Source: an uncultured Trueperaceae bacterium
GTDB lineage: Bacteria > Deinococcota > Deinococci > Deinococcales > Trueperaceae
Reading direction: 5' to 3'
Assembly: GCA_963799485.1 (NCBI GenBank)
Contig: CAWCXJ010000001.1
Coordinates: 32,001 to 96,000, forward strand
Length of the DNA: 64,000 nucleotides
Part shown: one piece after another, positions 220 through 63,580 of the stretch
Numbering within the stretch: the first letter of the stretch is position 1
Layout: every line of letters begins with the position of its first letter
The notes under the pieces: model-generated
What the model was told of the DNA's origin: nothing
Databases searched by the model: none
The model's input: the letters and a program-made list of their open reading frames with translations, nothing else
Made by a program: the position numbers and the translations under genes

Positions 220-609
220 ATGGGTGTGTTCTATCTGCCGCGAGAACTGCTGGAAGACGTCCGCGCACACGCCGCCGAAGCCGCGCCCGACGAATGCGTC
301 GGGCTGCTTTTGGGCTGCTCTGCTCGAGTTGACCGAGTTTTGCGGTTGACGAACGTTTCCCCGACGCCGCAAACCCGGTTTTTTGCCGACCCGCAAGCGC
401 TTTTTACGGCGCTTCAAGAGGCTGACCGGCGCGGTGAGCAGCTCTTGGGAAGCTATCATTCGCATCCCCAAACCGACGCGTTACCGTCTCTAAGCGACCT
501 CGCCGGGGCGCAGGGTAAAACCGTTCAGCTCATCGTCGGGCGGGACACGGTGAGGGTCTTCAGGCTTTACGGCGGGGTGGCGACGGAACTCGAGCTGAAG
601 CTGCTGTAA
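220..609 (+). CDS. JAB/MPN+ (JAMM, M67 family) metallopeptidase
   Basis: N-terminal Glu (PDECVGLL) and canonical H-x-H-x7-S-x2-D motif (YHSHPQTDALPSLSD). Confidence 0.88.
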   Translation: MGVFYLPRELLEDVRAHAAEAAPDECVGLLLGCSARVDRVLRLTNVSPTPQTRFFADPQALFTALQEADRRGEQLLGSYHSHPQTDALPSLSDLAGAQGKTVQLIVGRDTVRVFRLYGGVATELELKLL

Positions 610-627
610 GCTCGAGCCTAGGAGGAC

Positions 628-1257
628 TTGATGAAGGTCTTGGTCGCAGGTGCCAGCGGAAAAACGGGTCGGTTGGTCGTGGAAAAACTGCTGGCGCAAC
701 AACAAGAGGTGCGGGCGCTCGTGCGGCGTGAAGAGGCGGCGTTAGAACTAAAAGCGCTCGGCGCAGAAACCGTCGTCGCCGACCTGACCGGCGACGTTGC
801 CCACACTTTGACAGGCTGCGAAGCGGTCGTTTTCGCTGCCGGGGCCGGCATGAGCGGCGACCCCGAAGCGGTCGATTACCGGGGCGCAGTCAAACTCATC
901 GAGGCGGCGGCGGCGCAAGGTGTCTCCCGGTTCGTGATGGTTTCGTCGCTCGGGACGGGTTACGCGGAGCGGATGCCGGAAATGCTCAAGCCTTACTTGG
1001 GGGCCAAACGCAAAGCTGAAAAGGTGCTGGAGGAAAGTTCGCTCGACTACACCACCGTAAAACCGGGTGGCCTGACCGACGCCGACGGGACGGGCAAAGT
1101 TGCTGTTGCAGAGACGCTGGAGCAGAGCGGCATGATTTCTCGGGTCGATGTCGCAGAGATTGTCGCTGAAGTTTTGCTTAACGAGCTGGCTCTTAAAACG
1201 TCGTTCGAGGTCGTCAGTGGCGATACGCCCATCGCCGACGCGCTCGCTACGCTGTAG
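628..1257 (+). CDS. Atypical SDR / NAD(P)H-binding oxidoreductase
   Basis: VLVAGASGKTG Rossmann motif, YxxxK (YLGAK), RVDVA; RBS AGGAGG upstream. Confidence 0.85.
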   Translation: MMKVLVAGASGKTGRLVVEKLLAQQQEVRALVRREEAALELKALGAETVVADLTGDVAHTLTGCEAVVFAAGAGMSGDPEAVDYRGAVKLIEAAAAQGVSRFVMVSSLGTGYAERMPEMLKPYLGAKRKAEKVLEESSLDYTTVKPGGLTDADGTGKVAVAETLEQSGMISRVDVAEIVAEVLLNELALKTSFEVVSGDTPIADALATL

Positions 1258-1259
1258 CG

Positions 1260-2066
1260 GTGTTTAGCAAAACCCAACTCGACCGTTACAGCCGCCAGCT
1301 TATCCTGCCCGGTGTCGGCGCGGCGGGTCAGCAAAAGCTTTTAGACGCTCGAGTTCTGGTCGTCGGCGCGGGTGGGCTGGGGTCGCCGGTTCTTTTATAT
1401 CTGGCGGCGGCGGGCGTCGGGACGCTCGGCGTCGTGGATAACGACCGCGTAGAGCTGAGTAACCTTCAGCGGCAAGTTATCCACAGCGTTGAGACGTTGG
1501 GTGCTGAGAAGGTAGCGTCGGCTAAAGCGCGTGTGGCAGCACTCAACCCGGACGTGCTGGTCGTGACCCACCCCACCCGCTTGACCGCTGAGAACGCCGT
1601 AAAACTGCTCTCGCCGTATGACCTCATCATCGACGGTTCCGACAACCTGCCGACGCGCTACCTCGTTTCGGACGCGTGTGTGCTGCTCGGCAAACCGTTT
1701 TTGTACGGCGCGATGGCGCAGTTTGAAGGGCAAATGAGCCTGCTACACGCGGCGGCTGCGGGTATTACCGGCCCGTGTTACCGCTGCCTCTATCCGGAGC
1801 CGCCGCCCGCCGACACCGTGCTGAGCTGCGCCGAAGGCGGCGTGTTCGGGGCGTTACCCGGGGTTGTCGGCACTTTGATGGCGACCGAAACCATCAAACA
1901 TATCGTGGGTTTGGAGGCGAGCACTTCGGGCAAGCTGACACACTACGACGCGCTTTCCGGAACGTTTCAGAGTATCAAACTGAGGCGTAACCCGGCGTGC
2001 CCGAGTTGTGGCGAAGCGCCGAGTATTCAAACGTTGGGTGACGCAGAACCTTTTTGTAAAAGCTAG
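1260..2066 (+). CDS. moeB: MoeB/ThiF-family E1-like adenylyltransferase without a rhodanese domain
   Basis: RYSRQ, VVGAGGLGS, SNLQRQ, DGSDN, Zn-binding CYRC and CPSC, catalytic-loop Cys (SCAEGG). Confidence 0.85.
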   Translation: MFSKTQLDRYSRQLILPGVGAAGQQKLLDARVLVVGAGGLGSPVLLYLAAAGVGTLGVVDNDRVELSNLQRQVIHSVETLGAEKVASAKARVAALNPDVLVVTHPTRLTAENAVKLLSPYDLIIDGSDNLPTRYLVSDACVLLGKPFLYGAMAQFEGQMSLLHAAAAGITGPCYRCLYPEPPPADTVLSCAEGGVFGALPGVVGTLMATETIKHIVGLEASTSGKLTHYDALSGTFQSIKLRRNPACPSCGEAPSIQTLGDAEPFCKS

Positions 2067-2207
2067 CTTGTCTTAGTTTAGCGAGATACATTCGGCAACC
2101 CGGCCTATCAAATAGCGGGTAAATACACTACAGACGGCTGAAAGCGCCCTCGCTCACGTGGTAGCTTGGCCTAACCTGCCTTGAAGTGTCGAGGCTGGAG
2201 GTGAAAG

Positions 2208-3212
2208 ATGCACAAGATTTTGCTGATTCCCGGTGACGGGATTGGGCTCGAGGTCACGCCCGCCGCCGAAAAACTTTTGCGGGCGACCGGCTTGCCGTTG
2301 GAAATTAGCTACGCCGACGCCGGTTGGGACACCTTCCAAAAAACCGGTAACAGCGTTCCCGACGAGACCTTGGAAAAGGTCAAGGCCGCCGACGCGACGC
2401 TTGCCGGGGCGTTTACCAGCCCGAGCGGAAGCCAGAAAGTACCGGGGTTTCAGGGGGCGATTCGTTACATGCGCCGTACCCTTGAGCTTTTTGCAAACCT
2501 GCGTCCGGCAAAGTCGCGGCCTATTCCGGGCTCGCTCCAAAACGTCGATATGCTGATGGTGCGCGAAAACACCCAGGGGCTTTACGTCGAGCAAGAAAGG
2601 CGTTACGGCGACGTGGCGATTGCCGACTGTGTGATTACCAAAAGTGCGTCGGAACGGGTGGCGCGAGTAGCGCTCCAAGAGGCACAGAAGCGGCGGGGCG
2701 AGCTTGCCGTCATTCACAAGGCGAACGTGCTGCCGCTGACGACGGGGTTGTTTCTCGAGACCGCCTTGGAGGTTGCCCAAGCATTCCCGGATGTCCACGC
2801 TTTTGATGTCATCGTCGACGCCGCCGCCATGAAGCTCGTGCGCGACCCGCACAGCTTCGATGTGCTGGTGACAACCAACCTTTTCGGGGACATCTTGTCG
2901 GATTTGATGGCGGGGCTCGTCGGTGGTTTAGGGCTTGCGCCGAGCGCCAACCTAGGCGAGCAGCACGCGATTTTTGAACCCGTTCACGGCAGCGCCCCCG
3001 ACATTGCCGGACGCGGTATTGCCAATCCTGCCGCGATGTTTCTGACTGCTGCGATGATGTTAAACCACCTCGGCGAAACCGAAACCGCCGTAAAAATCGA
3101 CCGGGCGGTAGACGAAATTCTGGAAAACGGCCCACGTACCGGTGATTTGGGCGGGAAAGCGACGACAGACGAGTTTACGGGCGCGGTTATAGGTGCGTAC
3201 AGGCAGCTTTAG
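2208..3212 (+). CDS. Homoisocitrate dehydrogenase (alpha-aminoadipate lysine pathway, Thermus/Deinococcus type)
   Basis: [56 protein letters not shown]; closely resembles T. thermophilus HICDH as I recall it; RBS GGAGGT. Confidence 0.85.
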
Positions 3213-3301
3213 CAGTACGGTTTACACCTGTCTGATTTTCATCTAAGTGATTTCCAGCTTTTGCTCGAGGACATCCGCGAGCACCTTGCTGTGGTTTTCT
3301 A

Positions 3302-3367
3302 GAGGGTGTTTGAAAAACCCCCCTACTGATGTTTGAGTAGGGGGTGAATGATAAAACAAAAGCAGTA
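3302..3367. mobile_element. Possible orphan end of an IS5-family (IS1031-like) element
   Basis: GAGGGTGTTTGAAAA at 3302-3316 resembles IS5/IS1031-type terminal inverted repeats and is followed by hairpin CCCCCTACT..AGTAGGGGG; no partner end found. Confidence 0.35.
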
Positions 3368-4386
3368 GGCTCTTCCTGCGTTTCAAGGAGCTACCAGAAC
3401 CTCAATGAGGGACGGTAATAGTGCCCTACCCCGGCTCCTAACGTTGTGGACGAACTCGAAGAAGCCCAAATAGAGTGGCAACTTTTCTTGCGAGATGCCG
3501 CGATGGGAGCGAAGCCAAGAGCGCAGTAGCGACCAGAAGCCCTCAATGCTGTTGACATGCACCTCATGAAAGCCATCGCCATCTTGCGGGCATACTCACC
3601 GGCAGAGTGGTTGACGGCTTGGTGCTCGTATCCCCACTGCTCCAAGCGGTCATAGATGCAGTACTCGTCAGTGTAGATAAGGCTGCCCCTGGAAATGAAG
3701 CTTTTGATGAATGGCGCGATAGTCTTCTGCTTTACGTTGGCAAGCATCTTGATCACTACCTCACCGTTGCGTTGCAGCATCCCTAGCACAGGAGGCTTCT
3801 CCTTCTCAAGCGTGCCTCTTCCGCGGCTTCCTTTGAGTCTGCGCCTTCGTCCCTGACGCTCCTTGTTCTTGACCGCCTGAGCTTGTCCCTTGTGACCCGC
3901 AACGATATACACCTCATCGCACTCTACGGTTCCTAATAGCTCGACAGGCTTTTTTTCGCCACCACGCCCTCACGAAGCTGGCTGGTCATCTGCTGCACAT
4001 CATCCTCGTTCAAATCTAGCTCTTTGGCAATCTGCCGATTGGAGAGATTCAGACCCATGAAATACAGGCACAGCACCCATACCTTCAGCGGCTGATGATG
4101 GCCTTCAAAGACGGTATCGGTAAGATCGTCGAACCGAGCACAGCACCTTCCCTGACAAACGTAGCGTTGGCGATGCGGCTGGGTGCTGTGAAAGCCTCGC
4201 TTGATGATCCTCTCTGACCCGCAGCTTGGGCACTTCACCCCACCAGGCCAACGTAGCTTGCGCACTTCCTCGAAACACTTGGCGTCATCCACCAAGACCT
4301 GGATGTTCAGCATTCGTCGAGTCTAACGGTGATTCTGCCCGTGTTGCAACGGCTTTACATTACCTCCTTGGAATCCATTAAGAGCC
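3368..4386 (-). mobile_element. IS1595-family insertion sequence (about 1.02 kb)
   Basis: Imperfect 23-bp terminal inverted repeats (18/23 identical): GGCTCTTCCTGCGTTTCAAGGAG at 3368 and the reverse complement of CTCCTTGGAATCCATTAAGAGCC ending 4386; encloses a Zn-ribbon/HTH/DDE transposase; no target-site duplication. Confidence 0.88.
3383..4313 (-). pseudogene. IS1595 transposase split across three frames
   Basis: CPSC Zn ribbon plus HTH (3933-4313); -1 frame continues GTVECDEVY...IYTDEY...VNHSAGEYAR; a second shift near 3585 gives DGDGFHEVHVNSIEGFWSLLRSWLRPHRG, ending in TGA at 3383-3385. Confidence 0.8.
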
Positions 4387-4561
4387 AACTTGTTTACTGA
4401 CAGATTTCAGCAAGGCGCAGTGTTCATCTAACTGAGCCTTGCCGAATTTGCAGGTTACAAAGGTGCTACGCTGCGCGTTTTGACGAAACGGCAGCTTCGC
4501 TTTGCAAGGGCAGCAGTAAGGTGCTCGCTCGTTACTGCCTAAAGTGCCGCGCGCCGGGGGG

Positions 4562-5041
4562 TTACTCGAGGTTTACGTCCACCACCGTGTAATTCACCTG
4601 ATTTCGGCCCATTTTAAGTTTTACGTGGTCGCCGCTCCGCCGCCCCAGGAGTTCACGGCCCAAAGGCGACTCGTCCGAGATGCGGTTTTCTAAAATATCC
4701 GCCTCGTGTGTACCGACAAGCTGATAGGTGACTTGAGCGCCGCCTTCATCTTCCAGCACGAGGCTTGCGCCGAGCCGGGCGACCGCTTCCTCGCCGGCTC
4801 TGGCCTCGACCACGACGGCGCGGTGGATAATCTCCTCGAGGTCGGCGATGCGCGCTTCGTTGGCGCTCTGCTCCATCCGGGCCTCGTCGTAGGCGGCGCT
4901 TTCGCGGAGGTCGCCGTCGGCAATCGCAGTACCCATATTGTCTGAAATCTGCTGCCGTTTGACCTCGACTAGGTACCTGAGCTCTTCTTTGATCTTTTCA
5001 AACCCCTGCGGGGTCAGCTGTACGGGTTTTTTCGTCATCAC
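4562..5041 (-). CDS. greA: Transcription elongation factor GreA
   Basis: GDLRESAAYDEAR catalytic tip; ISDESPLGRELLG C-terminal domain motif. Confidence 0.9.
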   Translation of the reverse strand: MMTKKPVQLTPQGFEKIKEELRYLVEVKRQQISDNMGTAIADGDLRESAAYDEARMEQSANEARIADLEEIIHRAVVVEARAGEEAVARLGASLVLEDEGGAQVTYQLVGTHEADILENRISDESPLGRELLGRRSGDHVKLKMGRNQVNYTVVDVNLE

Positions 5042-5214
5042 GCAACCTTTCGTTCTCTGTAGGGTTCAAGCTCTGTCCAGTTTAGTGCATAGTTCAAAAC
5101 CTGTTGTGGCTTAGCCCATTATAAGGTGCGCGGGCGTCCTTGCCAAAGGCAGCGTACAGAACAGCTCGGTAGGGACGGCGTGTTATAAGATACCCGCCAT
5201 CAGGAGGCTGGGTT

Positions 5215-5679
5215 ATGACACGCGACATCAAGGTCACAAAAGAGGGGTTGGCGAGGCTCGAGGCGCAGCTTCAGGACGAACAGGGGCGCTTGGAAGAGGC
5301 GACGCACATCTTGCAAGAGCTGACTGTTTCGTCTAACGACTACGAAGATTCGGGGCTCGAGGACGCTCGCGTAGAAAAAGCACGGCTCGAGGCCCGTGTG
5401 GACGATCTCGAAGACCAGCTCCGCCGCGCCGTCGTGATCGCCGACTACGCGCGCACGCAAGTCGATTTAGGGTCGGTCGTCACGCTAAAAAGCGGCGCGG
5501 AAACCCTGCAAGTGCAGCTCGTATCACCCGTCGAGGCGGTTGTGACCGGCGACGACATCCCGCACATCTCGGACGCGTCGCCGCTCGGTCAGGCGCTTTT
5601 TGGGCGCAAGGTCGGCGAAACATTCACGCTTACGACGGGTCGCCGCAGCACCGACTACGAGGTCACGGAAATACGCTAA
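5215..5679 (+). CDS. gfh1: Gre-factor homologue Gfh1 (anti-cleavage factor)
   Basis: ILQELTVSSNDYEDSGLEDAR resembles Thermus Gfh1 (ILQELMESSDDYDDSGLEAAK); ISDASPLGQAL; RBS AGGAGG. Confidence 0.8.
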   Translation: MTRDIKVTKEGLARLEAQLQDEQGRLEEATHILQELTVSSNDYEDSGLEDARVEKARLEARVDDLEDQLRRAVVIADYARTQVDLGSVVTLKSGAETLQVQLVSPVEAVVTGDDIPHISDASPLGQALFGRKVGETFTLTTGRRSTDYEVTEIR

Positions 5680-5706
5680 GGAACGCTCAGGCAGGTAAGC
5701 TAAGGT

Positions 5707-7206
5707 ATGGAACGACCCGAACAGAAGTCTTTGTCTGAACAGCGCGAGCAGCGACTCCGAAACCTAGAGTCGCTGCGCGAGCGCGGTTTTGAGCCCTACC
5801 CTTATATGTACCGTCCAACGCATACCGCTGCCGAGTTGCACGCCGCGCACCCCAAAGAGGGGCTCGAGCCGGGTACGCACTTTGACGAAACCGTTACGGT
5901 GGCGGGCCGGGTGATGCTCCTGCGCGGGATGGGTAAGGCGAGCTTTGCGACCCTTCAGGACGCGTCGGGGCAGCTTCAGGCATACTTTCAAAAAGATGCG
6001 CTTACTGAGTACAACGCGCTCAAGAAGGTTGATCTAGGCGACTGGCTAGAGGTCTCCGGCCCGCTTTTCGTCACCAAAACCGGCGAACTGACGGTGCAGG
6101 CGACGGATTTTCGCCCGCTCGTCAAATCACTCCGCCCCTTGCCCGATAAATACCACGGTTTGACGGGCAAAGAAGCGCGTTACCGCCAGCGTCACCTCGA
6201 TCTGATGGTCTCGCCCGAGGTCAAACGGGCGTTTGTGCTGCGCTCCAAGGCGGTGTCGTTTATCCGGCGTTATTTAGATGATTTAGGCTTTCTCGAGGTC
6301 GAAACGCCCGTACTGCAAAGCGTTCCCGGGGGCGCGGAGGCGCGGCCTTTTGTCACGCATCACAACGCCCTCTCGCACGACTTTCACCTGCGAATATCCC
6401 TCGAGCTTTACCTCAAACGCCTGATTATCGGCGGTTTCGGTGCAGTGTACGAAATCGGGCGTAATTTTCGCAACGAGGGTGTCTCGCACAAGCACAACCC
6501 CGAATACACGATGCTGGAGCTTTACTGGGCGGGCCGCGATTATCTGGACATCTTGAAGTTGGTTGAGGAGCTGTATAGCAAGCTGATTCAGGCGCTGACC
6601 GGCTCCATGAAGCTCAGCTATCAGGGCACCGAACTCGACTTTACCCCGCCGTGGCCCCGCGTCGATTACACGTCTGAACTCGAAAAGCGCGCCGGCATGG
6701 ACTTCAGCCTGCTCGACGAAGCCAAGCTGCGGGCGTGGGTCGCTGAACAGCACCCGCCTAAAGACGGGGGAGAGGCGCTCTCCGAACGACCGCTCGGCGA
6801 AATATACAACAAGCTTTACGACATCTACCTCGAGCCGTACCTGGAGCAGCCCACCTTCGTCATGGATCACCCGCTCGCCATCAGCCCGCTCGCCAAAATC
6901 CACCGTTCCCGCCCCGGTTTAGTCGAGCGTTTCGAGCCGGTCTGCGCCGGGATGGAACTCGGGAACGCCTTTAGCGAACTCAACGACCCCATCGACCAAC
7001 GGGCGCGTTTTGAAGCGCAGCAAGCCCTGCGCGATGCGGGCGATGACGAGGCGCACCCCATAGACGAGGACTTTTTGGCGGCTTTGGAGTACGGGATGCC
7101 GCCGACGGGTGGTTTAGGACTCGGTATCGACCGTCTGGCGATGCTTTTAGCCGACGTACCGAGCATCCGCGACGTGATTTTGTTTCCGCTTCTGAAACCG
7201 GAGTAG
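5707..7206 (+). CDS. lysS: Lysine--tRNA ligase (class II)
   Basis: OB-fold N-terminus, PLPDKYHGL, RYRQRHLDL, FRNEGVSHKHNPEYT, GMPPTGGLGLGIDRL. Confidence 0.97.
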   Translation: MERPEQKSLSEQREQRLRNLESLRERGFEPYPYMYRPTHTAAELHAAHPKEGLEPGTHFDETVTVAGRVMLLRGMGKASFATLQDASGQLQAYFQKDALTEYNALKKVDLGDWLEVSGPLFVTKTGELTVQATDFRPLVKSLRPLPDKYHGLTGKEARYRQRHLDLMVSPEVKRAFVLRSKAVSFIRRYLDDLGFLEVETPVLQSVPGGAEARPFVTHHNALSHDFHLRISLELYLKRLIIGGFGAVYEIGRNFRNEGVSHKHNPEYTMLELYWAGRDYLDILKLVEELYSKLIQALTGSMKLSYQGTELDFTPPWPRVDYTSELEKRAGMDFSLLDEAKLRAWVAEQHPPKDGGEALSERPLGEIYNKLYDIYLEPYLEQPTFVMDHPLAISPLAKIHRSRPGLVERFEPVCAGMELGNAFSELNDPIDQRARFEAQQALRDAGDDEAHPIDEDFLAALEYGMPPTGGLGLGIDRLAMLLADVPSIRDVILFPLLKPE

Positions 7207-7493
7207 GGGTGTTTCTTGCGCCTCTCACAGTACCGAGACCATACCGAAACACAGTACCGAGAGGCTGCAACCGAACGTACAGCTTGTGCCCGTAAACCGT
7301 TTGGGCCGAGATAAAGTCGGGTTCAAGCTACTTCGGTTTACCCCGCCCTGACTGGCTCGCCTTGCCGGATGTACTAAGTTCTTGGATATAGGCGTCGCCC
7401 GAGGATAACCCGCTTGGCGCGAACATGCTGACCCACCGCTTTTTCAGTGGTGCTAGACCAAGGCTCCGGCAAAGCATCGACGCCGCCTATGCC

Positions 7494-7531
7494 AAAAAAA
7501 GAGGTGGGGCGCGAAGCCCCACCTCTTTTTA
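7494..7531. terminator. Bidirectional intrinsic terminator
   Basis: A-tract, GAGGTGGGGC-GCGAA-GCCCCACCTC stem-loop, T-tract, between convergent genes. Confidence 0.85.
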
Positions 7532-7586
7532 TCTCGGTTCACTATCTTGTTGTGCTGGCCTCTTGTTACGTTAGCCGTACCTTACG

Positions 7587-10644: not shown

Positions 10645-10654
10645 GGCTCACGAC

Positions 10655-10690: not shown

Positions 10691-10699
10691 TGATTTATT

Positions 10700-12001: not shown

Positions 12002-12011
12002 GTACATTCCT

Positions 12012-12787: not shown

Positions 12788-14338
12788 TTGACTTCACCTA
12801 CGCCTGAATCTATGCCTAAAACCTCTAAAACCCCAGCACGGAGCACGGCGCGGGGCGCACTTACCCTGATGATCGGCACGCTGGCCAGCCGCGTCACCGG
12901 GCTTTTACGTGCTGGGTTTTTTAATCAGCTCTTTAGAGTCGAAGTCCTCGATGCTTTCAATATCGCCATCAAAGTCCCCAATCTCTTCCGGGAGCTCCTG
13001 GCTGAAGGTGCGCTCATCAACTCGTTCGTGCCTGCGTACAAGGCGCTGCCCCCGAGCGAGGCCAAGCGGCTCTCGAGCGCCCTCCTCAGCCTCTTAGTCG
13101 TTTTGAACGGCGTTCTGCTCGTGTTTGCAGTCTGGGCCGCGCCCTGGGTCGTGGGGCTGCTCGTCTCCGACCCGAGCAAGATCAACGTGCCGCTGACCGT
13201 CACCCTGACGCGGGCCGTCTTTCCGTTTTTAGGTGCGATTTCGTTTTCGGCGCTGGCGATGGGTATCTTGAACGCCGAAGAGCGCTTTTTTGCGCCCGCT
13301 TGGGCACCTGTAATTCTCAACGTCGTCACAACCGCCCTGATGCTGCTCTATCCGCAGCAGGCGCTGATGCTGGCTGTGGCCTTTGTGCTGGGCGGCGTGG
13401 CGCAGCTACTATTCCAGCTCCCGCCTCTTTTTCGCGCCGGCGTGTTGCCGCAGTTCGGGGTGTGGTGGCACCCGCAACTTCGGAGTGTTCTCCTTTTGAT
13501 GGTGCCCTTCACCTTTACGACCGGGGCGCGGCAGCTTTTGAATCTGGTCTCGAGCCGTCTCCTCACCTCGCTACCCGTGGGTAGCGTAACCGCGTTTACC
13601 AACGCCGACCTGTTTTTGAGCTTGGCTTTGGGGCTTTTTAGCATCTCCCCGGCGCTGGCGTTTTATTCACGGCTCTCAGGGCAGACCTCGAGCCCCACAG
13701 ACTTCCGCACGACACTCGTCTCGGGGTTGCGCCTCATCACCTTTTTAAGCGTTCCGGCAGGGCTGTTACTGACCCTGTACGCAAGCCCTGCCGTCGTAAG
13801 CGTCCTCAACTGGTTTCCGCTCTTGGGACGCCCCGGCATGAACGCTCAGGTGTTGTCGCTCTCGGTCGCCGCCCTTGCCCCGCTCGGTCTGGCGGTCTTT
13901 CCGGTCGGCCTCAGCAACCTGCTCATCCGCACCTTTTACGTGCGCCGCCGCGTCCGGACGCCGGTCGTCGTGAGTGCTCTCTATACCGCCCTCACCGCAC
14001 TTTTTTACGGCGTCTTGGCCCCGGTTTACGGCGTCGCCGGGCTTTCGTGGGGGGCTGTAATCGCCGGATGGGTGCAGCTCGGTGCGTTGCTCTATCTGGT
14101 GGGGCAGCGGGAGGGGCTCGAGGTCAAAGCTCTCTTAACCCAGATAAGCCGGGTCTGGCTGGCAGCACTTTTAGCTGCCGGGTTAGGCTGGGTGCTTTCG
14201 GGTGCGCTGCCGCTTCCGTCCGGGTGGTGGGGCGCGGTGCTGAATGTAAGCCTCGGGGGAGGTCTCAGCGCGCTGCTGTATCTGGCGCTGTGTATACGCC
14301 TGAACGTCGCTGAAGTGGCGCGGTTTCGCCGCCGGTAG
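12788..14338 (+). CDS. murJ: Lipid II flippase MurJ/MviN
   Basis: TLASRVTGLLR, DAFNIAIKVPNLFRELLAEGA..SFVP; many transmembrane segments; start may be the ATG at 12812. Confidence 0.9.
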   Translation: MTSPTPESMPKTSKTPARSTARGALTLMIGTLASRVTGLLRAGFFNQLFRVEVLDAFNIAIKVPNLFRELLAEGALINSFVPAYKALPPSEAKRLSSALLSLLVVLNGVLLVFAVWAAPWVVGLLVSDPSKINVPLTVTLTRAVFPFLGAISFSALAMGILNAEERFFAPAWAPVILNVVTTALMLLYPQQALMLAVAFVLGGVAQLLFQLPPLFRAGVLPQFGVWWHPQLRSVLLLMVPFTFTTGARQLLNLVSSRLLTSLPVGSVTAFTNADLFLSLALGLFSISPALAFYSRLSGQTSSPTDFRTTLVSGLRLITFLSVPAGLLLTLYASPAVVSVLNWFPLLGRPGMNAQVLSLSVAALAPLGLAVFPVGLSNLLIRTFYVRRRVRTPVVVSALYTALTALFYGVLAPVYGVAGLSWGAVIAGWVQLGALLYLVGQREGLEVKALLTQISRVWLAALLAAGLGWVLSGALPLPSGWWGAVLNVSLGGGLSALLYLALCIRLNVAEVARFRRR

Positions 14339-55252: not shown

Positions 55253-55268
55253 CCGTAAAGGAGAAACG

Positions 55269-55595: not shown

Positions 55596-55599
55596 GCGC

Positions 55600-56000: not shown

Positions 56001-56009
56001 CGTAAAATA

Positions 56010-56564: not shown

Positions 56565-56565
56565 G

Positions 56566-57663
56566 CTAGCGCACGGCTAAACGTACCCGCTGCACGTTGC
56601 CCCACTCGTACCCGGCGGGGTTCCAACCGGTTGTGGGCCCTAGTGGTTGCGCGTAGCCTGCGTCGTCAAAGGCGCGTAGCCACACCTCGGGTTCGCCCGC
56701 AGGTAGCTCCAACGTCAGCGACCATTCCGACCAGGCGTAAGGGCTTTCGGGTGTGTCTAGTTTGGCGTCGTGCCAGGTTTCACCGCTATCTTGCGAAACC
56801 GCGACCCGCGCGACGCGGCTCTGTCCGTCCGTCCAGGCGACGCCGCCGAGTTCGTTCGGGCCCGCGTGCAACGTATCGCCGATGAGAGGAGTCCAGAGGA
56901 GGCTCCGGAGTTTCATCCGCCAGCTCGGGGTGCTGTTCTGGGGTGTTCCGATAAAGGGTTGACCGGGCTCTAGAGGTTTTTTTGGCAGCCGGTACCTTTC
57001 CTGCTGATAGTGACTCGGGCTCTCTTCATCTTCTAAACTCAAATAGTTCAGCCATTTTACGTTGTTGACGCCGTAAAATCCCGGCAACACGAGCCGGAGC
57101 GGGCCACCGTGCAGCGCCGGGAGCGGTTCGCCGTTAAGGGTAGAGGCGAGCAGCGCGTTTTCCAGTACGTCATCAAGGGGTACGCTCCGTTCAAACGGGC
57201 CGTGATTGTCGTGTGCGGTTCCGGCACCACGGGCCAGCAGGTAACGCGCTTCGCCGTAAAATCCTAGATCGTCCAGCACAGTTTTGAGCCGGACACCGCC
57301 GAAAACGACGTTGGCGACCGCGCCGTCACTCCACTGTGCGCCGCTGACCGGGCTGCTGCCGCCGAAGTGTCCCCTCGAGTTTCCCGAACACTGCAACACC
57401 ATCTCGGTTTCGGTGACGGGATAACGCCGTAAATCTGGCAAGCTGAGCTGCACCGACGACGCTCCGTCCTGCACCGTAAAAGACCATTCAGTCGGAGCCT
57501 CAGCTAAGGTCATGTAGCCGTCTAAATCCTGATTGTTGCGGATATACAGGTGCGCCTTGTCGGTAACGCGCGAGCGCCGTAACAGAGCAAGGGGGGTTTC
57601 GCTCTGCAGCGGGTCGCTGACGTGCAGCGTCAGCCAGGGGGTTTTGCCTGCAATGTTGTGCAT
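56566..57663 (-). CDS. Sulfite oxidase-family molybdoenzyme without a Tat signal
   Basis: YIRN, LQCSGNSR (Mo-ligand Cys), NGEPLPALHGGPLRLVLPG.YG..NVKWL, Ig-like dimerisation domain. Confidence 0.88.
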   Translation of the reverse strand: MHNIAGKTPWLTLHVSDPLQSETPLALLRRSRVTDKAHLYIRNNQDLDGYMTLAEAPTEWSFTVQDGASSVQLSLPDLRRYPVTETEMVLQCSGNSRGHFGGSSPVSGAQWSDGAVANVVFGGVRLKTVLDDLGFYGEARYLLARGAGTAHDNHGPFERSVPLDDVLENALLASTLNGEPLPALHGGPLRLVLPGFYGVNNVKWLNYLSLEDEESPSHYQQERYRLPKKPLEPGQPFIGTPQNSTPSWRMKLRSLLWTPLIGDTLHAGPNELGGVAWTDGQSRVARVAVSQDSGETWHDAKLDTPESPYAWSEWSLTLELPAGEPEVWLRAFDDAGYAQPLGPTTGWNPAGYEWGNVQRVRLAVR

Positions 57664-57815
57664 GGGTGCTCCTTCAAAAGAGGCATGTTGAGTCAGGGTT
57701 GTCCTCGTAAAGAGTCAGCCTAGCGGCCGGGTTCCGTTACCGGTCGTGTTCATTCAGTCTACTTTAGCAGCGCAGCCCGGCACTCCCAAATGGGCCATCT
57801 GATAGGCTTAACGAA

Positions 57816-58259
57816 ATGATCTCGCTCACGCAAAAGGCTAAATACGCGCTGAAAGCGCTGGTTTTTTTAGCCAAGGAGTACGACAACGGCCCGGTGCTGA
57901 TTACGACCATCGCCGAGTCGGAACACATTTCACGCAAGTTTTTAGAGCTGATTTTGCTCGAGCTTAAAAATCACGGGGTGCTGCAGAGCAAAAAGGGGCG
58001 CGGCGGTGGTTACTGGCTGGCGCAGCCTCCCGAAGACATCTATCTGGGGCGCGTCATCCGCATCTTTGAAGGGGCACTTGCGCCCCTGCCGTGCGCGTCG
58101 AAACGCTATTACCGGCGTTGTGAGGAATGTAAGGACGAAGCGAGGTGTGAGGTGCGGGCGGTAATGCTCGAGGTCAAGGCGGCTACCTTGCGCGTCCTCG
58201 ACACGACTTCGCTACGTGACACCTTGAGCCTGGGACAGACGCCGGTGCTGGGTTTGTAG
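57816..58259 (+). CDS. Rrf2-family transcriptional regulator
   Basis: KYALKAL, ISRKFLELIL..LK, SKKGRGGGY; Cys cluster PLPCAS...CEEC....C. Confidence 0.9.
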   Translation: MISLTQKAKYALKALVFLAKEYDNGPVLITTIAESEHISRKFLELILLELKNHGVLQSKKGRGGGYWLAQPPEDIYLGRVIRIFEGALAPLPCASKRYYRRCEECKDEARCEVRAVMLEVKAATLRVLDTTSLRDTLSLGQTPVLGL

Positions 58260-58338
58260 CTGTTCGCTGCCTGGACACGCCTCCAAGAAGGTGTAGACTC
58301 GGACGTAAGCGCACTTTACGCTTTTCTGGAGGATTGTT

Positions 58339-59442
58339 ATGCCCACCCCTGACTTTTTATGGTTTTGTCAGCTCTCGCGCGACGGCGAGTTCGTCGGCAC
58401 TAAAGAACTTTCACCGCGTAAACCGACCCTCGAGTACCTTTCCGGCATCATCGAAACGGCGGCCGAAGCGGGGTTTTCCTCGCTCCTCACCGCAACCAAT
58501 TATCACCACGAAAACGAGACCTGGACGGCGGGCGTTGCCGCGCTCGCCCGCACGCGCGGGGCCGGACTCCTGCTCGCGGTGCGTCCCGGTATGTATCACC
58601 CTTCGCAGTACGCCAAGATGGTCGCAACCGCCGCCAACTTTTTTCCGGGTCGCGTCCGCATCAACGTCGTGACGGGTTCGTCACCCGCTGAAAATGCCAT
58701 GTACGGCGACTTCGAGCCGCACGCACAGCGCTACACACGCACCCGCGAATTCATGCTGCTCTTACGTAAACTCTGGCGCGAAACGCCGGTCTCGTTCGAG
58801 GGCGAGGTCTACCGGATTGAAAACGCCGTTGTCGATCCCAAACCGCCTGAAAACATCCCGCTCTACTTCGGCGGTGCGAGCGACGCCGCGCAGCGCATCG
58901 CCGCCGAACTCGCCGACGTTTACCTGATGTGGGGCGAACCGCAAGAGATGATCAAAGAGCGTCTGGAAAAGATGCAGGGTTTGAGCGCCGAATACGGTCG
59001 CACGCTCCGTTACGGCCTCCGGATGCACGTGATTGTCCGAGAGACCGAAGCCGAGGCGTGGGCCGCTGCCGAGCGGATGATTTCGCGTATCGACCCCGAG
59101 GTCCGGCAAGCCTTTTTGGAGTCGTACAAACACGTCGATTCGGTCGGGCAGCGCCGTCAGATCGAGATGGGTCTGAAGGGCGACCTGATGGTCGAGCCGC
59201 ACCTGTGGGCCGGTATCGGCTTGGCGCGGAGCGGCGTCGGGGTAGCGCTTGTCGGCGACCCGCAACAGGTCGCGGATAAACTAAGGGGTTATCAAAAGAT
59301 GGGCATCGACACCTTTATCTTGTCGAGCTATCCGCACCTCGAGGAAGCGCGGCGCTTCGGTGAGCTGGTGATGCCGTACTTTCAGGGCGGCAACGCCGAG
59401 CAGCGGGCGATTCATACCGATACGGTGGCTCCGGCGTTCTGA
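58339..59442 (+). CDS. LLM-class flavin-dependent monooxygenase (SsuD-like)
   Basis: LLAVRPG, GRVRINVVTG, YFGGAS, YLMWGEP, YGLRMHVIVRETEAEAW, LWAGIG, ILSSYPHLEEA. Confidence 0.85.
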   Translation: MPTPDFLWFCQLSRDGEFVGTKELSPRKPTLEYLSGIIETAAEAGFSSLLTATNYHHENETWTAGVAALARTRGAGLLLAVRPGMYHPSQYAKMVATAANFFPGRVRINVVTGSSPAENAMYGDFEPHAQRYTRTREFMLLLRKLWRETPVSFEGEVYRIENAVVDPKPPENIPLYFGGASDAAQRIAAELADVYLMWGEPQEMIKERLEKMQGLSAEYGRTLRYGLRMHVIVRETEAEAWAAAERMISRIDPEVRQAFLESYKHVDSVGQRRQIEMGLKGDLMVEPHLWAGIGLARSGVGVALVGDPQQVADKLRGYQKMGIDTFILSSYPHLEEARRFGELVMPYFQGGNAEQRAIHTDTVAPAF

Positions 59443-59460
59443 AGCTTAGAAAATTATGAA

Positions 59461-59483
59461 AGCCCTCGAGGCGCTCGAGGGCT
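59461..59483. other. Stem-loop built from two CTCGAG sites
   Basis: AGCCCTCGAG-GCG-CTCGAGGGCT. Confidence 0.55.
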
Positions 59484-59494
59484 CTATCCTGTAG

Positions 59495-60568
59495 GTGCGT
59501 TACGAGCTAAAGTCCATTGTGGAAGACCTAAACGACTTGCTAACCGAGGTTTTTCAGCAGTATGACGTTCCTTCACTGGCAGCGGCGGTTGTTTTTGGCG
59601 GGAAACTCTACGCGGCAGGCGCGGTAGGCGTCCGCAAACGTGGCGACAGCACACCCGTGACCGTAAACGACAGATATCATATCGGGTCGTGTACGAAGGC
59701 GATGACGGCGACGCTGGCGGGGATTCTAGTCAAGCGGGGTTTACTCGCTTGGAATACGACGTTGCGTAAAGTTTTTCCTGAAATGAAAATGCATCCGGCC
59801 TATCAATCCGTAACGCTCAAGCAGCTCTTGTCACATACGGCGGGAATGCCTGCTTTTACCGATTCAGAAGCCGAAGAAGCAGCTGACCCAATGCTAACAG
59901 AAACCGTTTTCGGGGTTGACGGCGTACCTATGAACGACCGGTTGGGGGTCGTCGTCCCCGAGCTTCTGCGCCGGGAACCTCGCACGCCACCGGGAAGCGC
60001 GTTCGAGTATTCCAATATGGGTTATGTGACGGCGGGCGCAGTGTTTGAAAAGCTGACGCAAACGCCTTTTGAGACACTTTTACCAACCGAAGTTTTTACG
60101 CCGCTCGGTCTGACTTCGGCAGGGTTTGGAGCGGCAGGTACAGCCGGGAAGATTGATGAACCCTGGGGTCACGCCCCTAAACCCGTCGAACCTGGGCCGG
60201 AGGCAGACAATCCGCCTGTCATTTCACCCGCAGGTTGTGTTCATATGTCCGTCGTAGATTTTGCCCGTCACGCGGTGTTTCATCTGACGGGTGAACCTAA
60301 ACGTGTGGGCCGAGAGACGCTCGAGGTTTTACACACACCCGTTTCTGAGAACTACGCTTTAGGTTGGGGTGTAGCTGAGCGCGAGTGGGCACCGGGAAAA
60401 CTGCTCACGCACGCGGGCTCGAACAACAGGTCGCTTGCCGTGAACTTGCTAGCTCCCGCGTTGGGCTTCTCTGTTGTCGCTGCGTGCAATTCGGGTATCG
60501 ATGAAGGGACTGAGGCGTTAGACGAAATTGTGCAAGCCGCCAAGCGCCGTTTCCTGAACGTAAAATAG
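59495..60568 (+). CDS. Beta-lactamase-related serine hydrolase
   Basis: SxxK (GSCTK), LLSHTAG, YSN, HAGS. Confidence 0.88.
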   Translation: MRYELKSIVEDLNDLLTEVFQQYDVPSLAAAVVFGGKLYAAGAVGVRKRGDSTPVTVNDRYHIGSCTKAMTATLAGILVKRGLLAWNTTLRKVFPEMKMHPAYQSVTLKQLLSHTAGMPAFTDSEAEEAADPMLTETVFGVDGVPMNDRLGVVVPELLRREPRTPPGSAFEYSNMGYVTAGAVFEKLTQTPFETLLPTEVFTPLGLTSAGFGAAGTAGKIDEPWGHAPKPVEPGPEADNPPVISPAGCVHMSVVDFARHAVFHLTGEPKRVGRETLEVLHTPVSENYALGWGVAEREWAPGKLLTHAGSNNRSLAVNLLAPALGFSVVAACNSGIDEGTEALDEIVQAAKRRFLNVK

Positions 60569-60617
60569 TCAGACCGAAAGCCTGACTACCTGTTTTTGAC
60601 CTGTCCTTGTGAACTGT

Positions 60618-61934
60618 TTACGCGCCGACGGCGACCGGCTCCAAAACGGCGCGGATTGCGCGCTCGAGCTTTTCCAACCCTTCACTCAGCTCCGCGTCCG
60701 ACATGCGAATCGGGGGTAACAGCCGAATGACGTTGCTGTAGGTGCCGGTCGTCAAGAGCAGCAGACCGTCCGCGCGGGCGTGTTCCAACACCGCCTGCGC
60801 CGCTTCGGGGTTGGGCGTTTTGTCCGGGCCGCTGACGAATTCAATCCCGACCATTGCGCCGAGGCCGCGCACATCGCCGATTTTAGGCAGGTCTTTTTGC
60901 AGCGACTTGAGTTTGTCGGTTGCTGCTGCGCCGATTTCTTGCGCGCGTTCCAGCAAGCCTTCTTCTTCGATGACCTCTAAAGTTGCCAAAGCCGCCGCAC
61001 ACGAAACCGGGTTGCCGCCGAAGGTACTACCGAGCTGTCCCGGCGCAATTTTGTCCATCACTTCGGCTTTCCCGATCACGGCTGAAAGCGGAAACCCCGA
61101 CGAGAGCGCCTTCGCCGAGCAGATGAGGTCGGGCTCGAGGCCGTAATGGTCAACCACCCACCACGCCCCGGTGCGCCCGATCCCGGCCTGCACCTCGTCG
61201 TCGATCCAGAGCGCGCCGATTTCCTTGGCGTAGGCCTGCAGACCTTCCAGAAACGCTTTGGGAGCCGGAATAAAGCCCCCTTCACCGGCGACGGGTTCGA
61301 TCATAAAGGCGGCGACTTCACCTTCGCCGATGACGTACTTAACCTGCTCTTTAAGCTCAGTAAGCGCTCTTTCAGCGACTTCGGCTTCAGTCGTTGCGCC
61401 CCACGGGTTGCGGTAGAGGTATGGATACTGCGCCCGGTAGACCTCGGCAGCCCTCGGCGCAAACCCGGCTTTGTAGGGATTGGCTTTCGCCGTAAGCGAC
61501 AGCGCCATGTGGGTACGCCCGTGAAACGCGTGCGTAAACGCGACGATGCCCTGTCGCCCGGTGGCGACTCGAGCGATCTTTACGGCGTTTTCGACGGCTT
61601 CCGCACCCGAATTGATTAAGAACGTGCGCTTTTCCGAGCTGCCCGGTGCAATTTCGTTGAGTTTTTCGGCAAGCTGAATATACGTCTCGTTCATCCCGAC
61701 GGCAAAACAGAGGTGCTGAAACGCCTCGGCTTGTTTCTTGACAGCTTCAACGACTTTCGGGTGCGAGTGACCGACGTTCATGACGGCAATCCCCACCGTC
61801 CAGTCGAGATACTTGTTACCGTCGGCGTCCCAGATATACGCACCCTCACCCTTGACCGGATAAACCGGGTGGGTCGAATACGCGGCGGGGGTAACAGCCC
61901 TACGGCGGCGCTCGGCTAAGCTCTGGTTGCTCAT
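60618..61934 (-). CDS. gabT: 4-aminobutyrate aminotransferase (class III)
   Basis: NSGAEAVENAVKIAR, AFHGRT, EPVAGEGG, DEVQAGIGRTG, AKAL, TFGGNPV. Confidence 0.85.
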   Translation of the reverse strand: MSNQSLAERRRRAVTPAAYSTHPVYPVKGEGAYIWDADGNKYLDWTVGIAVMNVGHSHPKVVEAVKKQAEAFQHLCFAVGMNETYIQLAEKLNEIAPGSSEKRTFLINSGAEAVENAVKIARVATGRQGIVAFTHAFHGRTHMALSLTAKANPYKAGFAPRAAEVYRAQYPYLYRNPWGATTEAEVAERALTELKEQVKYVIGEGEVAAFMIEPVAGEGGFIPAPKAFLEGLQAYAKEIGALWIDDEVQAGIGRTGAWWVVDHYGLEPDLICSAKALSSGFPLSAVIGKAEVMDKIAPGQLGSTFGGNPVSCAAALATLEVIEEEGLLERAQEIGAAATDKLKSLQKDLPKIGDVRGLGAMVGIEFVSGPDKTPNPEAAQAVLEHARADGLLLLTTGTYSNVIRLLPPIRMSDAELSEGLEKLERAIRAVLEPVAVGA

Positions 61935-62155
61935 CTAAACCTCCCGTATCAAAAAACCTGTGAATGTTAAACACTTGATGCGCTACGCTTACGATTTCTA
62001 GGCTATCGCGTAAAAATACACAGCATTCTGTAGCTGGCGTATAGTTGAATGGTAGCACCTTTTGAAGACGGTGTGAACCCCTGCCGGACATAGCTTGGGG
62101 GTATTTTCCGCAGTTGTCTAGCTGATTTTCTGTGCGGGGCGGTAGACTGCCCGTT

Positions 62156-62827
62156 ATGAACTTACGCGCGCTTATCTTCGATATGGACGGTACCCTCATC
62201 GACACGGACAATCAGCACTTCGACGCCTACGTCAAGGTGCTAGATGATATCGGTATGCCTTTAGACCGCGAGGAGTACAATACCAGAATGGCGGGGCGGC
62301 CTAATATGGAAATCCTGCGCGACTATTTTCCGGACGCGGATGACGCGTATCGGCGCGACCTTATGAACCGTAAAGAGCGTGCCTTTAGAAATACCGCAGC
62401 GACCTGGGAACCTCTTTCCGGCCTTTCTGAGCTGATGGCGTGGGCCCACGAACAGGACTTGGCGCAGGCGCTGGTGACGAGCGCCCCACGTGAAAACGCG
62501 GCGTATCTCCTCGACGCCGTAAAGCTGACCGGCGCGTTCGAGCCTGAGGTTTACGCCGACGAATTGCCGCGCGGCAAACCCGACCCGCTCCCTTATACGA
62601 CGGCGTTAGAGCTTTTAGGCGTCTTACCCGAACAAGCTCTCGTCTTTGAAGACTCGGCGAGCGGGGTGAAGTCGGGGGCCGGCGCGGGTATTTTGACGGT
62701 CGGCTTGGCGACGACGCAGCGCCCGGAAGTGCTGAAGGCGGCGGGGGCGACGCTGGTTATTTACGACTTCACCGACCCGGCGCTTTGGGATTTATTGGGG
62801 GAGCTGCTCCCGGTCGCTGCGCGGTAG
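62156..62827 (+). CDS. HAD-family phosphatase (beta-PGM/CbbY-like)
   Basis: FDMDGTL, VTS, GKPDP, FEDS..G; ATG 62156 lies 7 nt after TAGACT. Confidence 0.88.
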   Translation: MNLRALIFDMDGTLIDTDNQHFDAYVKVLDDIGMPLDREEYNTRMAGRPNMEILRDYFPDADDAYRRDLMNRKERAFRNTAATWEPLSGLSELMAWAHEQDLAQALVTSAPRENAAYLLDAVKLTGAFEPEVYADELPRGKPDPLPYTTALELLGVLPEQALVFEDSASGVKSGAGAGILTVGLATTQRPEVLKAAGATLVIYDFTDPALWDLLGELLPVAAR

Positions 62828-62836
62828 GCGTAAAGC

Positions 62837-63580
62837 GTGCGTGTGGCGGTCTCCTGGGACGATGAGGTGAAAGCTGAAGCTCAGGCACTCGCCAAACGGC
62901 TCGAGCTACCGCTCGCAGGCGAAATACAGGCGGACGCCCTTCTTTGTCTGACGCGTGAGCGGCTCGAGCTTCGCACTACCGGCCCGCACGCGCCGGGGCC
63001 GGTCTACGCCGATTTTACCGGGGGCCGCGCCGAGTATCGCCGTAAACACGGGGGTGGACGCGGGCAACTTCTGGCGCGGGCTGTTTTAGCTAAAGGCATT
63101 TCACCGACGGTCATCGACGCGACGGCGGGGCTTGGGCGCGACGCCTTCGTGCTGGCGTCACTCGGGGCGCGGGTAACGCTGCTCGAGCGCTCGCCTGTCG
63201 TCGGCGTTCTTTTAGAAGACGCCCTGCGCCGCGCGCGAACCTCTGAAGTTGCCGACATCGCCGCCCGGATGAAGCTTTATGTCGGCGACGCCGTAAACTA
63301 CTTGGCAGCGTTAAAGGAAACGGAACGCCCCGAGGTCATCTACCTCGACCCAATGTATCCACATACGAGTAAACGCGCCTTGCAAAAAAAAGAGATGCAG
63401 CTCTTTCGGCAACTCGTGGGCGCAGACGACGCCGCTGAACTACTAAACATCGCGCGGTGCACGGCTCTTAAACGTGTGGTAGTCAAACGTCCGGCTGGCG
63501 CACCGTTTTTAGGGGACATGCAACCTGATGGGCGGCTCGAGAGCAAAAACACCCGTTTCGATTTCTATCTCAGCCGCTGA
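62837..63580 (+). CDS. rsmJ: 16S rRNA m2G1516 methyltransferase
   Basis: DATAGLGRDAFVLA, YLDPMYP, KKEM, RVVVKRP, RFD.Y. Confidence 0.88.
   Translation: MRVAVSWDDEVKAEAQALAKRLELPLAGEIQADALLCLTRERLELRTTGPHAPGPVYADFTGGRAEYRRKHGGGRGQLLARAVLAKGISPTVIDATAGLGRDAFVLASLGARVTLLERSPVVGVLLEDALRRARTSEVADIAARMKLYVGDAVNYLAALKETERPEVIYLDPMYPHTSKRALQKKEMQLFRQLVGADDAAELLNIARCTALKRVVVKRPAGAPFLGDMQPDGRLESKNTRFDFYLSR

Follow-up and report, generated by a model that had tools for sequence, protein, structure and literature searches.

Highly iterated palindromes (HIPs) have been described in cyanobacteria, in the form of HIP1 (GCGATCGC) and its alternates (Elhai 2015, PMC4390886; Xu 2018, PMC5861425). The traits used there to recognise them include a word-specific methyltransferase and deviations at the outer positions (PMC4390886) as well as positional conservation and quasi-even spacing (PMC5861425), and a causal tie between HIP1 and its methylases has been proposed. 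Here we studied the palindromic hexamer CTCGAG in a 64-kb stretch of DNA (below, the window; G000:C1:32001-96000) from the genome of an uncultured Trueperaceae bacterium (G000), a member of the Deinococcota. A first-pass annotation of the window had taken this word for a HIP1-like iterated motif. The analysis bears this out: CTCGAG occurs in all frames and in spacers, its neighbours are depleted, its synonymous positions are conserved and its spacing is slightly even. It is thus a highly iterated palindrome, HIP-like by all the tests that we ran except for an intact cognate methylase in G000.

Like HIP1 as these two papers present it, CTCGAG is a short GC-rich palindrome that lies far above expectation in all frames and in spacers. 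It is common to a large clade with exceptions, methylases for the word are found in the same lineages, its one-base variants are commoner at outer than at inner positions, and its spacing is somewhat even. Unlike HIP1, it is a hexamer and not an octamer, and it belongs to another phylum. The excess is about 6-fold (3.5-fold against synonymous shuffles), whereas 15- to 300-fold is given for HIP1 (Xu 2018, PMC5861425). Term look-ups in both HIP papers (PMC4390886, PMC5861425) return no CTCGAG, Deinococc* or Thermus. The recorded methylation of CTCGAG also differs from that of HIP1, being N6-methyladenine (m6A) only, placed by gamma-class enzymes of the Eco57I family, several of which stand beside restriction systems or derive from them. 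In G000 itself, moreover, the candidate methylase is broken.

Other known systems bear on the same word. Restriction sites are normally avoided. In E. coli, Dcm/Vsr very-short-patch repair raises CCWGG and depletes its one-base neighbours, for which it needs 5-methylcytosine (m5C) and Vsr. GATC stands in E. coli about once per 250 bp, and the density of CTCGAG in G000 is of that order.

In the window we counted 126 exact copies of CTCGAG, spanning positions 323-63541. Dinucleotide-preserving shuffles gave 21.53 ± 4.13 copies (largest 31), and 0 of 100 reached 126. The first-pass annotation, which had estimated about 125 copies against about 21 expected, was therefore close on both figures. It was also right that the word occurs in all three codon phases (323 is in frame 2 and 13072 in frame 3) and that the pair at 59465 and 59474 can form a hairpin, a 9-bp inverted repeat with a GCG loop. 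Two of its intergenic examples, 611 and 3264, do lie in spacers; the third, 23491, falls inside a long open reading frame (ORF) by our gene calls. These calls are crude (a greedy choice among long ORFs according to codon-usage scores) and yield 3,357 genes on 84% of the genome. The features of the window that carry the motif are as follows.

323..63541, unstranded: CTCGAG copies across the window, 94 as CTC-GAG (Leu-Glu), 4 as xCT-CGA-Gxx, 19 as xxC-TCG-AGx and 9 non-coding (crude gene calls)
323..328, + strand: second-frame example GCT-CGA-G, which sets the rare Arg codon CGA (gene calls)
611..616, unstranded: short-spacer example between two genes (gene calls)
13072..13077, + strand: third-frame example xxC-TCG-AGx (gene calls)
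59462..59482, + strand: paired sites (59465/59474) in a 9-bp inverted repeat with a 3-base loop, GCCCTCGAG GCG CTCGAGGGC

The inverted repeat begins 20 bp past the stop codon at 59440-59442 and has the look of a terminator stem, without a T run.

The abundance extends to the whole genome (3,655,195 bp in 15 contigs, GC content 59%), which holds 7,252 copies, or one per 504 bp, and one per 482-662 bp on every one of the 15 contigs. CTCGAG ranks first among all 4,096 hexamers, the next being CGCCGC/GCGGCG with 6,922 per strand. Of the 64 hexamers that are palindromes, most are depleted, and AAGCTT comes second with an observed/expected ratio (O/E) of 2.08. Genes carry 6,235 of the copies: 5,032 as CTC-GAG, 309 as xCT-CGA-Gxx and 894 as xxC-TCG-AGx. 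A codon-preserving shuffle, proposed in the first-pass annotation as a check, does not reproduce this count. Thirty synonymous-codon shuffles within genes gave 1,781 ± 45 copies (largest 1,889), which leaves a 3.5-fold excess; by frame, the means were 1,520, 40 and 221, so that O/E is 3.3, 7.8 and 4.0. The test is conservative, because the codon usage that it keeps is already inflated by CTCGAG. In non-coding DNA there are 1,025 copies (O/E 6.3, rising to 7.6 in spacers shorter than 150 bp). The excess acts at the level of DNA, in genes and spacers.

Codon choice bends around the word. CTC-GAG encodes 5,032 of the 9,424 Leu-Glu pairs of G000 (53%), and Glu is written GAG in 96% of cases after CTC, a share that is near 45% for the majority of other preceding codons (81% at most). 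Its one-step neighbours are depleted (O/E of 0.15 for CTC-GAA, 0.29 for CTT-GAG and 0.34 for CTG-GAG), and the two-step TTG-GAG stands at 1.16. In the second frame, the Arg codon CGA makes up 5% overall, 44% in xCT-Arg-Gxx and 3.5% in the control xCC-Arg-Gxx; in the third, the Ser codon TCG rises from 28% overall to 67% in xxC-Ser-AGx. Genome-wide, one-base variants have an O/E of 0.87-1.69 at positions 1/6, 0.74-0.98 at 2/5 and 0.44-0.98 at 3/4. The flanks favour G at -1 and C at +1 (50% against a background of 29.5%), and GCTCGAGC is the commonest octamer of G000 with 1,755 copies. Past these G/C flanks there is no further consensus, and a repeat element as the source of the sites was rejected on this ground.

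The sites are also kept in place between relatives. The window is collinear with two genomes of about 80% DNA identity (G001 and G005) and one of about 73% (G002); in the order G001, G005, G002, CTCGAG is retained in 55 of 86, 36 of 54 and 13 of 36 aligned cases, against 27%, 34% and 18% for all hexamers. When the comparison is limited to codon pairs with both residues unchanged, CTC-GAG is kept letter for letter in 45 of 56, 32 of 38 and 12 of 15 cases (80-84%). The same comparison gives 38%, 43% and 28% for other degenerate codon pairs and 17%, 30% and 6% for other encodings of Leu-Glu. Part of this conservation could reflect a shared preference and not descent. The members of this genus (g1) differ in GC content, from 59% in G000 and about 57-58% in G001 and G005 to 69% in G002 (80-kb sample), and hold a similar CTCGAG O/E of 7.0-7.5.

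For comparison across the phylum we used a composition-free index, R, in which the CTCGAG count is divided by the count of CTGGAG averaged over both strands; the sample comprised 151 Deinococcota. Tallies for the Trueperaceae cover 71 genomes in 36 genera, including one unpublished genome (G183). By LysS, the nearest named relatives of G000 are a Truepera metagenome-assembled genome (78% identity) and an uncultured Trueperaceae genome (72%). The values of R are given below.

G000: 12.3, the top of the 151 sampled Deinococcota
Trueperaceae in the 151-genome sample: 1.15-12.3
Genus g26: 1.25-6.9
Genus g31: 3.9-7.3
Genus g32: 4.3-4.7
Family f3: 1.6-4.7
Genus g23 (27 genomes of 1.8-2.5 Mb): about 0.4-1.5, neutral
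Genus g21 (77 genomes): about 0.01-0.4, strong avoidance

We would guess that g21, g23 and g26 are Deinococcus-, Thermus- and Meiothermus-like, respectively. R exceeds 1.2 in 33 of the 36 Trueperaceae genera, and genomes of family f5 hold 1,540-2,544 copies of GCTCGAGC each. The excess belongs to a large part of the Deinococcota and not to G000 alone: besides most Trueperaceae, several genera that are Thermaceae-like or Marinithermaceae-like share it. The opposite of these sister lineages is found in g21, with 26-1,010 copies of CTCGAG in genomes of 1.9-6.1 Mb. We found no published report of the abundance of CTCGAG in the literature on this word, on Thermus, Meiothermus or Truepera methylation, or on orphan methyltransferases.

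Methylation of the word has been recorded in this phylum. Tables S3/S4 of Blow 2016 (PMC4752239) give CTCGAG as an m6A motif in three Deinococcota, and a cognate nuclease is listed for none of the three (PMC4752239).

Marinithermus hydrothermalis: Marky_0034, 94.6% of sites detected, annotated Eco57I in table S5 (Blow 2016, PMC4752239)
Meiothermus chliarophilus: MeichDRAFT_0814, 94.1% of sites detected (Blow 2016, PMC4752239)
Meiothermus ruber: Mrub_2385, 99.5% of sites detected (Blow 2016, PMC4752239)

With no listed nuclease, a palindromic target throughout the genome and conservation within genera, the situation is like that of the orphan type II methylases of that paper. Its passages on them, unlike the present analysis, concern methylation and unmethylated sites and not the abundance of the word, and its main text names CTCGAG only for Nocardia (PMC4752239).

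Genes that could place such a mark were sought in G000 and its relatives. The methylases of G000 comprise a type I HsdM, an MmeI-like enzyme, a 1,084-amino-acid N6_N4 fusion protein, and C5 and gamma-class genes. The m5C methylases (two intact genes and one partial match) sit in surroundings that resemble a prophage or plasmid. Of type II enzymes of the Eco57I family there is a single candidate, here called type A, a 554-codon gamma-class gene with Eco57I and M_Eco57I_C domains at G000:C6:26002-27663. It is present in 39 of the 71 Trueperaceae, with a consistent pattern inside each genus, and 12 of 15 genomes of g26 also have it. The remaining 3 of these 15 carry type B (Eco57I and TaqI_C domains), which is 25% identical to type A over its full length. 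In the Trueperaceae, type B was found in 6 of 71 genomes, five of them in genera without type A, and the sixth, G002, has both. The two types have near-complementary distributions in CTCGAG-rich genera. Further enzymes are a TaqI-like type C, in one f3 genome (G030) and, at 51-58% identity, in 27 of 27 g23 genomes, and an N6_N4 methylase convergent to an intact XhoI-family nuclease in one f3 genome. The type C homologue is thus present in every sampled g23 genome, yet g23 has no CTCGAG excess. A sequence search of the PDB with type A gave no match, and homologues of type A carry generic names only.

Gamma-class methylase genes go with the richest genera. Median R in the Trueperaceae is 6.6 with type A (n = 39) and 3.6 without it (n = 32); by genus (21 vs 15), a one-sided Mann-Whitney test, not corrected for phylogeny, gives p = 0.03. 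Type A is shared by the seven genera that run from R 33.8 to 7.5; one exception at this level, g39 (10.5), has neither A nor B. Counted by hand, the median R is 5.4 for the 24 genera with either type and 2.7 for the 12 with neither.

Among metagenome homologues of type A, a same-strand gene of about 240 amino acids comes next in 59 of 80 loci. This partner belongs to no Pfam or NCBIfam family and is a 'hypothetical protein' on annotated plasmids. Its predicted structure (pLDDT, the predicted local distance difference test, of 89) matches NucC (Z 10.1 and 9.4), BstEII (9.0), NgoMIV (8.3), BbvCI (8.2) and PspGI (8.1), so the model gives it a restriction-nuclease fold; Foldseek against the PDB returned no match at E <= 0.001. 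Probably the partner represents a type II nuclease family that has yet to be described, faintly XhoI-like at the catalytic motif. An alignment by hhalign with the XhoI family covers 36 columns around that motif (E 0.039, not significant), and a language-model look-up, a lead only, places the partner near a cluster with the XhoI family in 13% of its members. The gene order and sizes resemble those of PaeR7I, and by gene sizes type A may belong to the PaeR7I family. No target word for type A emerged from the words avoided in 56 partner-bearing metagenome loci, which show only generic palindrome avoidance. Within the Trueperaceae, the partner occurs in 2 of 71 genomes. In one of these, G005, an intact 239-codon frame directly follows type A, with the same gene surroundings as in G000:

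G005:C8:3371179-3373466 (locus L223): type A with its partner

Consistent within genera and with a partner in 2 of 71 Trueperaceae, type A is a conserved orphan methyltransferase in the sense of Blow 2016.

XhoI-family nucleases (PF04555) are present in 4 of the 151 Deinococcota genomes; none was found in the 77 sampled g21 genomes. The intact ones stand in three CTCGAG-rich f3 genomes. In G002, the gene right after type B encodes an XhoI-family nuclease, broken up into two ORFs, and this adjacency ties type B to CTCGAG. In both respects the relatives resemble XhoI/PaeR7I systems, whose site is CTCGAG. G000 does not: it has no match to the XhoI family at E <= 0.1 and none to a profile of the type A partner, while CTCGAG is its commonest hexamer. 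Without a nuclease of either kind and with its candidate methylase interrupted, G000 does not hold an XhoI-type restriction-modification system.

The interruption of type A in G000 is a single in-frame TGA at codon 74 of the assembled sequence, a position that the short contigs from four public read runs do not reach, and it may be an assembly error. Orthologues in G001-G005 are intact. G000 reads GCT TGA GTC where G001 and G005 read GCT CGA GTC (Ala-Arg-Val), which contains a CTCGAG site; judging from this alignment, the stop arose when the CpG of a CTCGAG copy underwent a C-to-T change, turning CGA into TGA.

We infer that the type A lineage in G000 has CTCGAG as its target and that the word owes its abundance, or the upkeep of it, to methylation. 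We lean, with something short of even confidence, towards a causal tie between methyl mark and abundance, and methylation-linked maintenance is our leading reading. A force at the DNA level favours the exact hexamer over its one-base neighbours and overrides codon preference in all frames; the same force slightly raises Leu-Glu and fills spacers to gene-like density. Lineages with the motif also have gamma-class adenine methylases of the Eco57I family, alone or beside a restriction nuclease. A mark-guided repair or conversion activity may turn near-sites into sites or, alternatively, selection may favour a dense methyl mark. In G000, the nuclease partner is gone and the methylase would have been knocked out recently, with the motif still at its full level. 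The methyltransferase- or repair-driven upkeep proposed in the first-pass annotation is supported in part: m6A in relatives and the tracking of abundance by genes speak for it, and the broken candidate of G000, rich genomes without the searched types and Meiothermus silvanus speak against it.

Several observations weigh against maintenance by methylation. The 12 genera with neither A nor B still reach their median R of 2.7, and g39 its 10.5. In g31, a search for the Eco57I family drew a blank in two of the three genomes (R 7.3 and 3.9), and G036, from f5, the densest family, has no type A. A specificity of type A for CTCGAG is putative, and the XhoI likeness of its partner is slight. Metagenome contigs with a type A homologue hold 92 CTCGAG where 137 are expected (order-1 model, 56 loci); since most of them show no excess, the type A methylase is not sufficient for the abundance. 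Five motifs are listed for Meiothermus silvanus, none of them CTCGAG (PMC4752239), and the first 50 kb of its plasmid pMESIL01 contain 63 copies against 17 expected (R 1.6).

Neither the Vsr-like repair gene (PF03852) that had been suggested as a candidate, at E <= 0.1, nor Dam was found in G000, and this too counts against maintenance by methylation. The pattern departs from Dcm/Vsr further in that the recorded mark is m6A and that the depleted neighbours include transversions (CTG-GAG 0.34) in addition to the deamination product. We know of no mutational route by which m6A creates sites.

Decay of the motif after the loss of the methylase is not seen in G000 relative to G001 and G005. In three-way comparisons of G000, G001 and G005, 29 sites are common to all, 11, 16 and 11 are private, and 5, 4 and 4 are privately absent, a symmetric pattern despite the broken methylase. 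Sites missing in one genome only are one-base variants in 4 of 5, 0 of 4 and 2 of 4 cases, numbers too small to use. The ratios of neighbours to sites in G000 are like those of the relatives with intact methylase (in the same order, 0.118, 0.100 and 0.106 for CTCGAA and 0.109, 0.117 and 0.131 for CTTGAG). This can be read in three ways: the methylase was lost very recently, the stop is an error of the assembly, or the motif can persist without methylation.

A rival reading gives the excess another cause, for example a protein that binds or repairs DNA, or a bias of the lineage in mutation or conversion, with the methylases as its consequence. We regard this as quite possible, if doubtful. A CTCGAG restriction-modification system would be strongly addictive in a genome full of its sites, and so retained; a resident methylase would protect such a genome in advance against incoming XhoI-type systems; the nuclease would be lost first and the orphan methylase would decay later. 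One genus does display such stages, with methylase and intact nuclease-fold partner in G005, methylase alone in G001 and G002, and the stop in G000. The split nuclease beside type B in G002, the rarity of the partner (2 of 71 Trueperaceae) relative to the methylase (39 of 71) and the intact XhoI-family nucleases of the three rich f3 genomes point the same way. Rich genomes without the searched methylases, the M. silvanus methylome and the absence of decay in G000 fit a cause independent of methylation as well. On the other side, no candidate for such a cause was found, nor was one systematically searched for, and at least three to four unrelated or distant methylase types converge on CTCGAG in these lineages. 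The highest enrichments of the Trueperaceae go with type A, and an iterated palindrome is reported to be paired with a cognate methylase in cyanobacteria too (Elhai 2015, PMC4390886).

Within the leading reading, methylation-linked maintenance, stronger forms can be stated. That an m6A-guided activity, a mechanism like the one postulated for HIP1, converts neighbours to CTCGAG across the Deinococcota, or that the dense mark has a Dam-like genome-wide role, strikes us as unlikely though worth keeping in view. Dam/GATC and CcrM/GANTC are the orphan models here, and we know of no MutH- or SeqA-like reader for CTCGAG. Mismatch repair in the Deinococcota relies on a MutL nuclease and is not known to be methyl-directed.

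It is very improbable that the excess is a by-product of overlapping di- to pentanucleotide biases and not a property of the hexamer. O/E in G000 falls from 6.2 through 5.9, 4.7 and 3.3 to 1.48 under Markov models of orders 0-4, and the drop under the maximal-order model is what such a by-product would give. The low order-4 value is largely due to the fact that CTCGA and TCGAG themselves consist mostly of CTCGAG: it is the hexamer that makes its sub-words abundant (of 10,771 CTCGA, 7,252 continue with G). Other xTCGAy palindromes are depleted (GTCGAC 747 copies, ATCGAT 354, TTCGAA 315). An O/E of 1.48 on an expected 4,904 still amounts to 2,348 surplus sites, and synonymous shuffles with motif-inflated codon usage still leave the 3.5-fold excess. 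The ratio, which the first-pass annotation had proposed to compare with 1 under higher-order models, is not near 1 at any order from 0 to 4.

We give next to no credence to protein composition with a translational codon-pair preference for Leu-Glu as CTC-GAG, to which the 5,032 of 6,235 coding sites in that frame and a Leu-Glu dipeptide at 1.23 times expectation would lend themselves, because non-coding DNA is enriched as well (6.3-fold, alike in divergent, tandem and convergent spacers), the other two frames are enriched 7.8- and 4.0-fold and employ a rare Arg codon, and the best codon-adapted genes have slightly fewer sites. Both the composition and the codon-pair explanations are rejected.

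The placement of the sites is nearly uniform. Spacers hold 1.8-2.1 CTCGAG per kb regardless of orientation, and in the spacer comparison the density is lowered only in the 20 bp upstream of start codons. A regulatory placement was rejected, as spacer orientation makes no difference. The coefficient of variation of inter-site distances is 0.935, the sole value below 1 among the 21 commonest hexamer words (1.06-1.32 for the others), and both very short and very long distances are under-represented.

The first-pass annotation had also suggested CTCGAG as a marker of native versus recently acquired DNA. As such it is weak. Across deciles of codon adaptation the density is nearly flat, with 1.64 per kb in the lowest (where 30% of genes are site-free) and 1.8-2.25 in the others, and the longest CTCGAG-free stretch in G000 is 4,667 bp. 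Large site-free islands of foreign DNA were considered and rejected, none being longer than 4.7 kb; the longest have lower GC content and codon scores but are small. One insertion sequence (IS) lies in the window:

3365..4389, strand -: IS1595-family element with zero CTCGAG, one of 4 near-identical copies in the genome

Its lack of sites had been noted before with the caveat that this is weak evidence, and both the lack and the caveat stand: about 2 sites per kb are expected, and near-identical copies amount to one observation. The other copies are at C1:251671-252695, C11:3775-4796 and C6:735473-736491. At 99.6-100% identity among the four, their sequences point to recent transposition.

Some further words stand out. 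Several palindromes are strongly avoided in G000, namely TTTAAA (22 copies, O/E 0.08), GGATCC (53, 0.05), GGCGCC (210, 0.09), GCATGC (83, 0.07) and CCATGG (107, 0.09); the avoidance of many palindromic hexamers may reflect past or present restriction pressure. The octamer GCCGTAAA / TTTACGGC is among the commonest of G000, with 1,752 copies over both strands. It has no extended consensus (only CGCCGTAAAa), and CGTAAA stands at 5.4 times expectation. In relatives, the reversed word CGAGCTCG occurs 0-3 times per genome in f5 (G028, G032, G036, G040), and GAGCTC only 62-145 times in several Trueperaceae of 4.2-4.7 Mb (G087, G171, G182, G200). This suggests that a SacI-type palindrome is strongly avoided alongside the CTCGAG excess in some relatives.

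Two similar C5 cytosine methyltransferase genes of G000 lie at G000:C2:20460-21548 and C3:35865-36923. Around them are numerous short genes with low codon scores, and the two contigs are the lowest in GC among those of this size (56.8%); these regions look like prophage or plasmid copies.

To our knowledge, HIP1 has gone unexplained for three decades and has been known from one phylum only. CTCGAG is a second, independent iterated palindrome, with another sequence, another class of methylase and a second phylum. What the present analysis adds is its presence in the Trueperaceae and in cultured genera, the link to methylomes, the near-complementary methylases, the predicted nuclease partner and the apparently self-inflicted stop. 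As the phylum has cultured members with public methylomes, it is useful for testing proposed causes. A single family offers natural contrasts, with methylase and nuclease, methylase alone, a broken methylase or no methylase, and sister genera ignore or avoid CTCGAG, which allows methylation-guided repair, selection for the mark and retention of restriction systems to be tested against each other, both comparatively and by knock-out.

For the organisms themselves, the word has consequences. It distorts codon-pair statistics and makes XhoI a very frequent cutter of their DNA. It also inflates the rare Arg codon CGA, which is one step from a stop, and the cost is apparently visible in the methylase gene of G000. 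If the m6A-guided or Dam-like form of the reading were true, resident methylases would give rise to iterated palindromes as a rule, in phyla that are not related, and the phenomenon would be no peculiarity of cyanobacteria; it would be open to study in cultured Meiothermus and Truepera.

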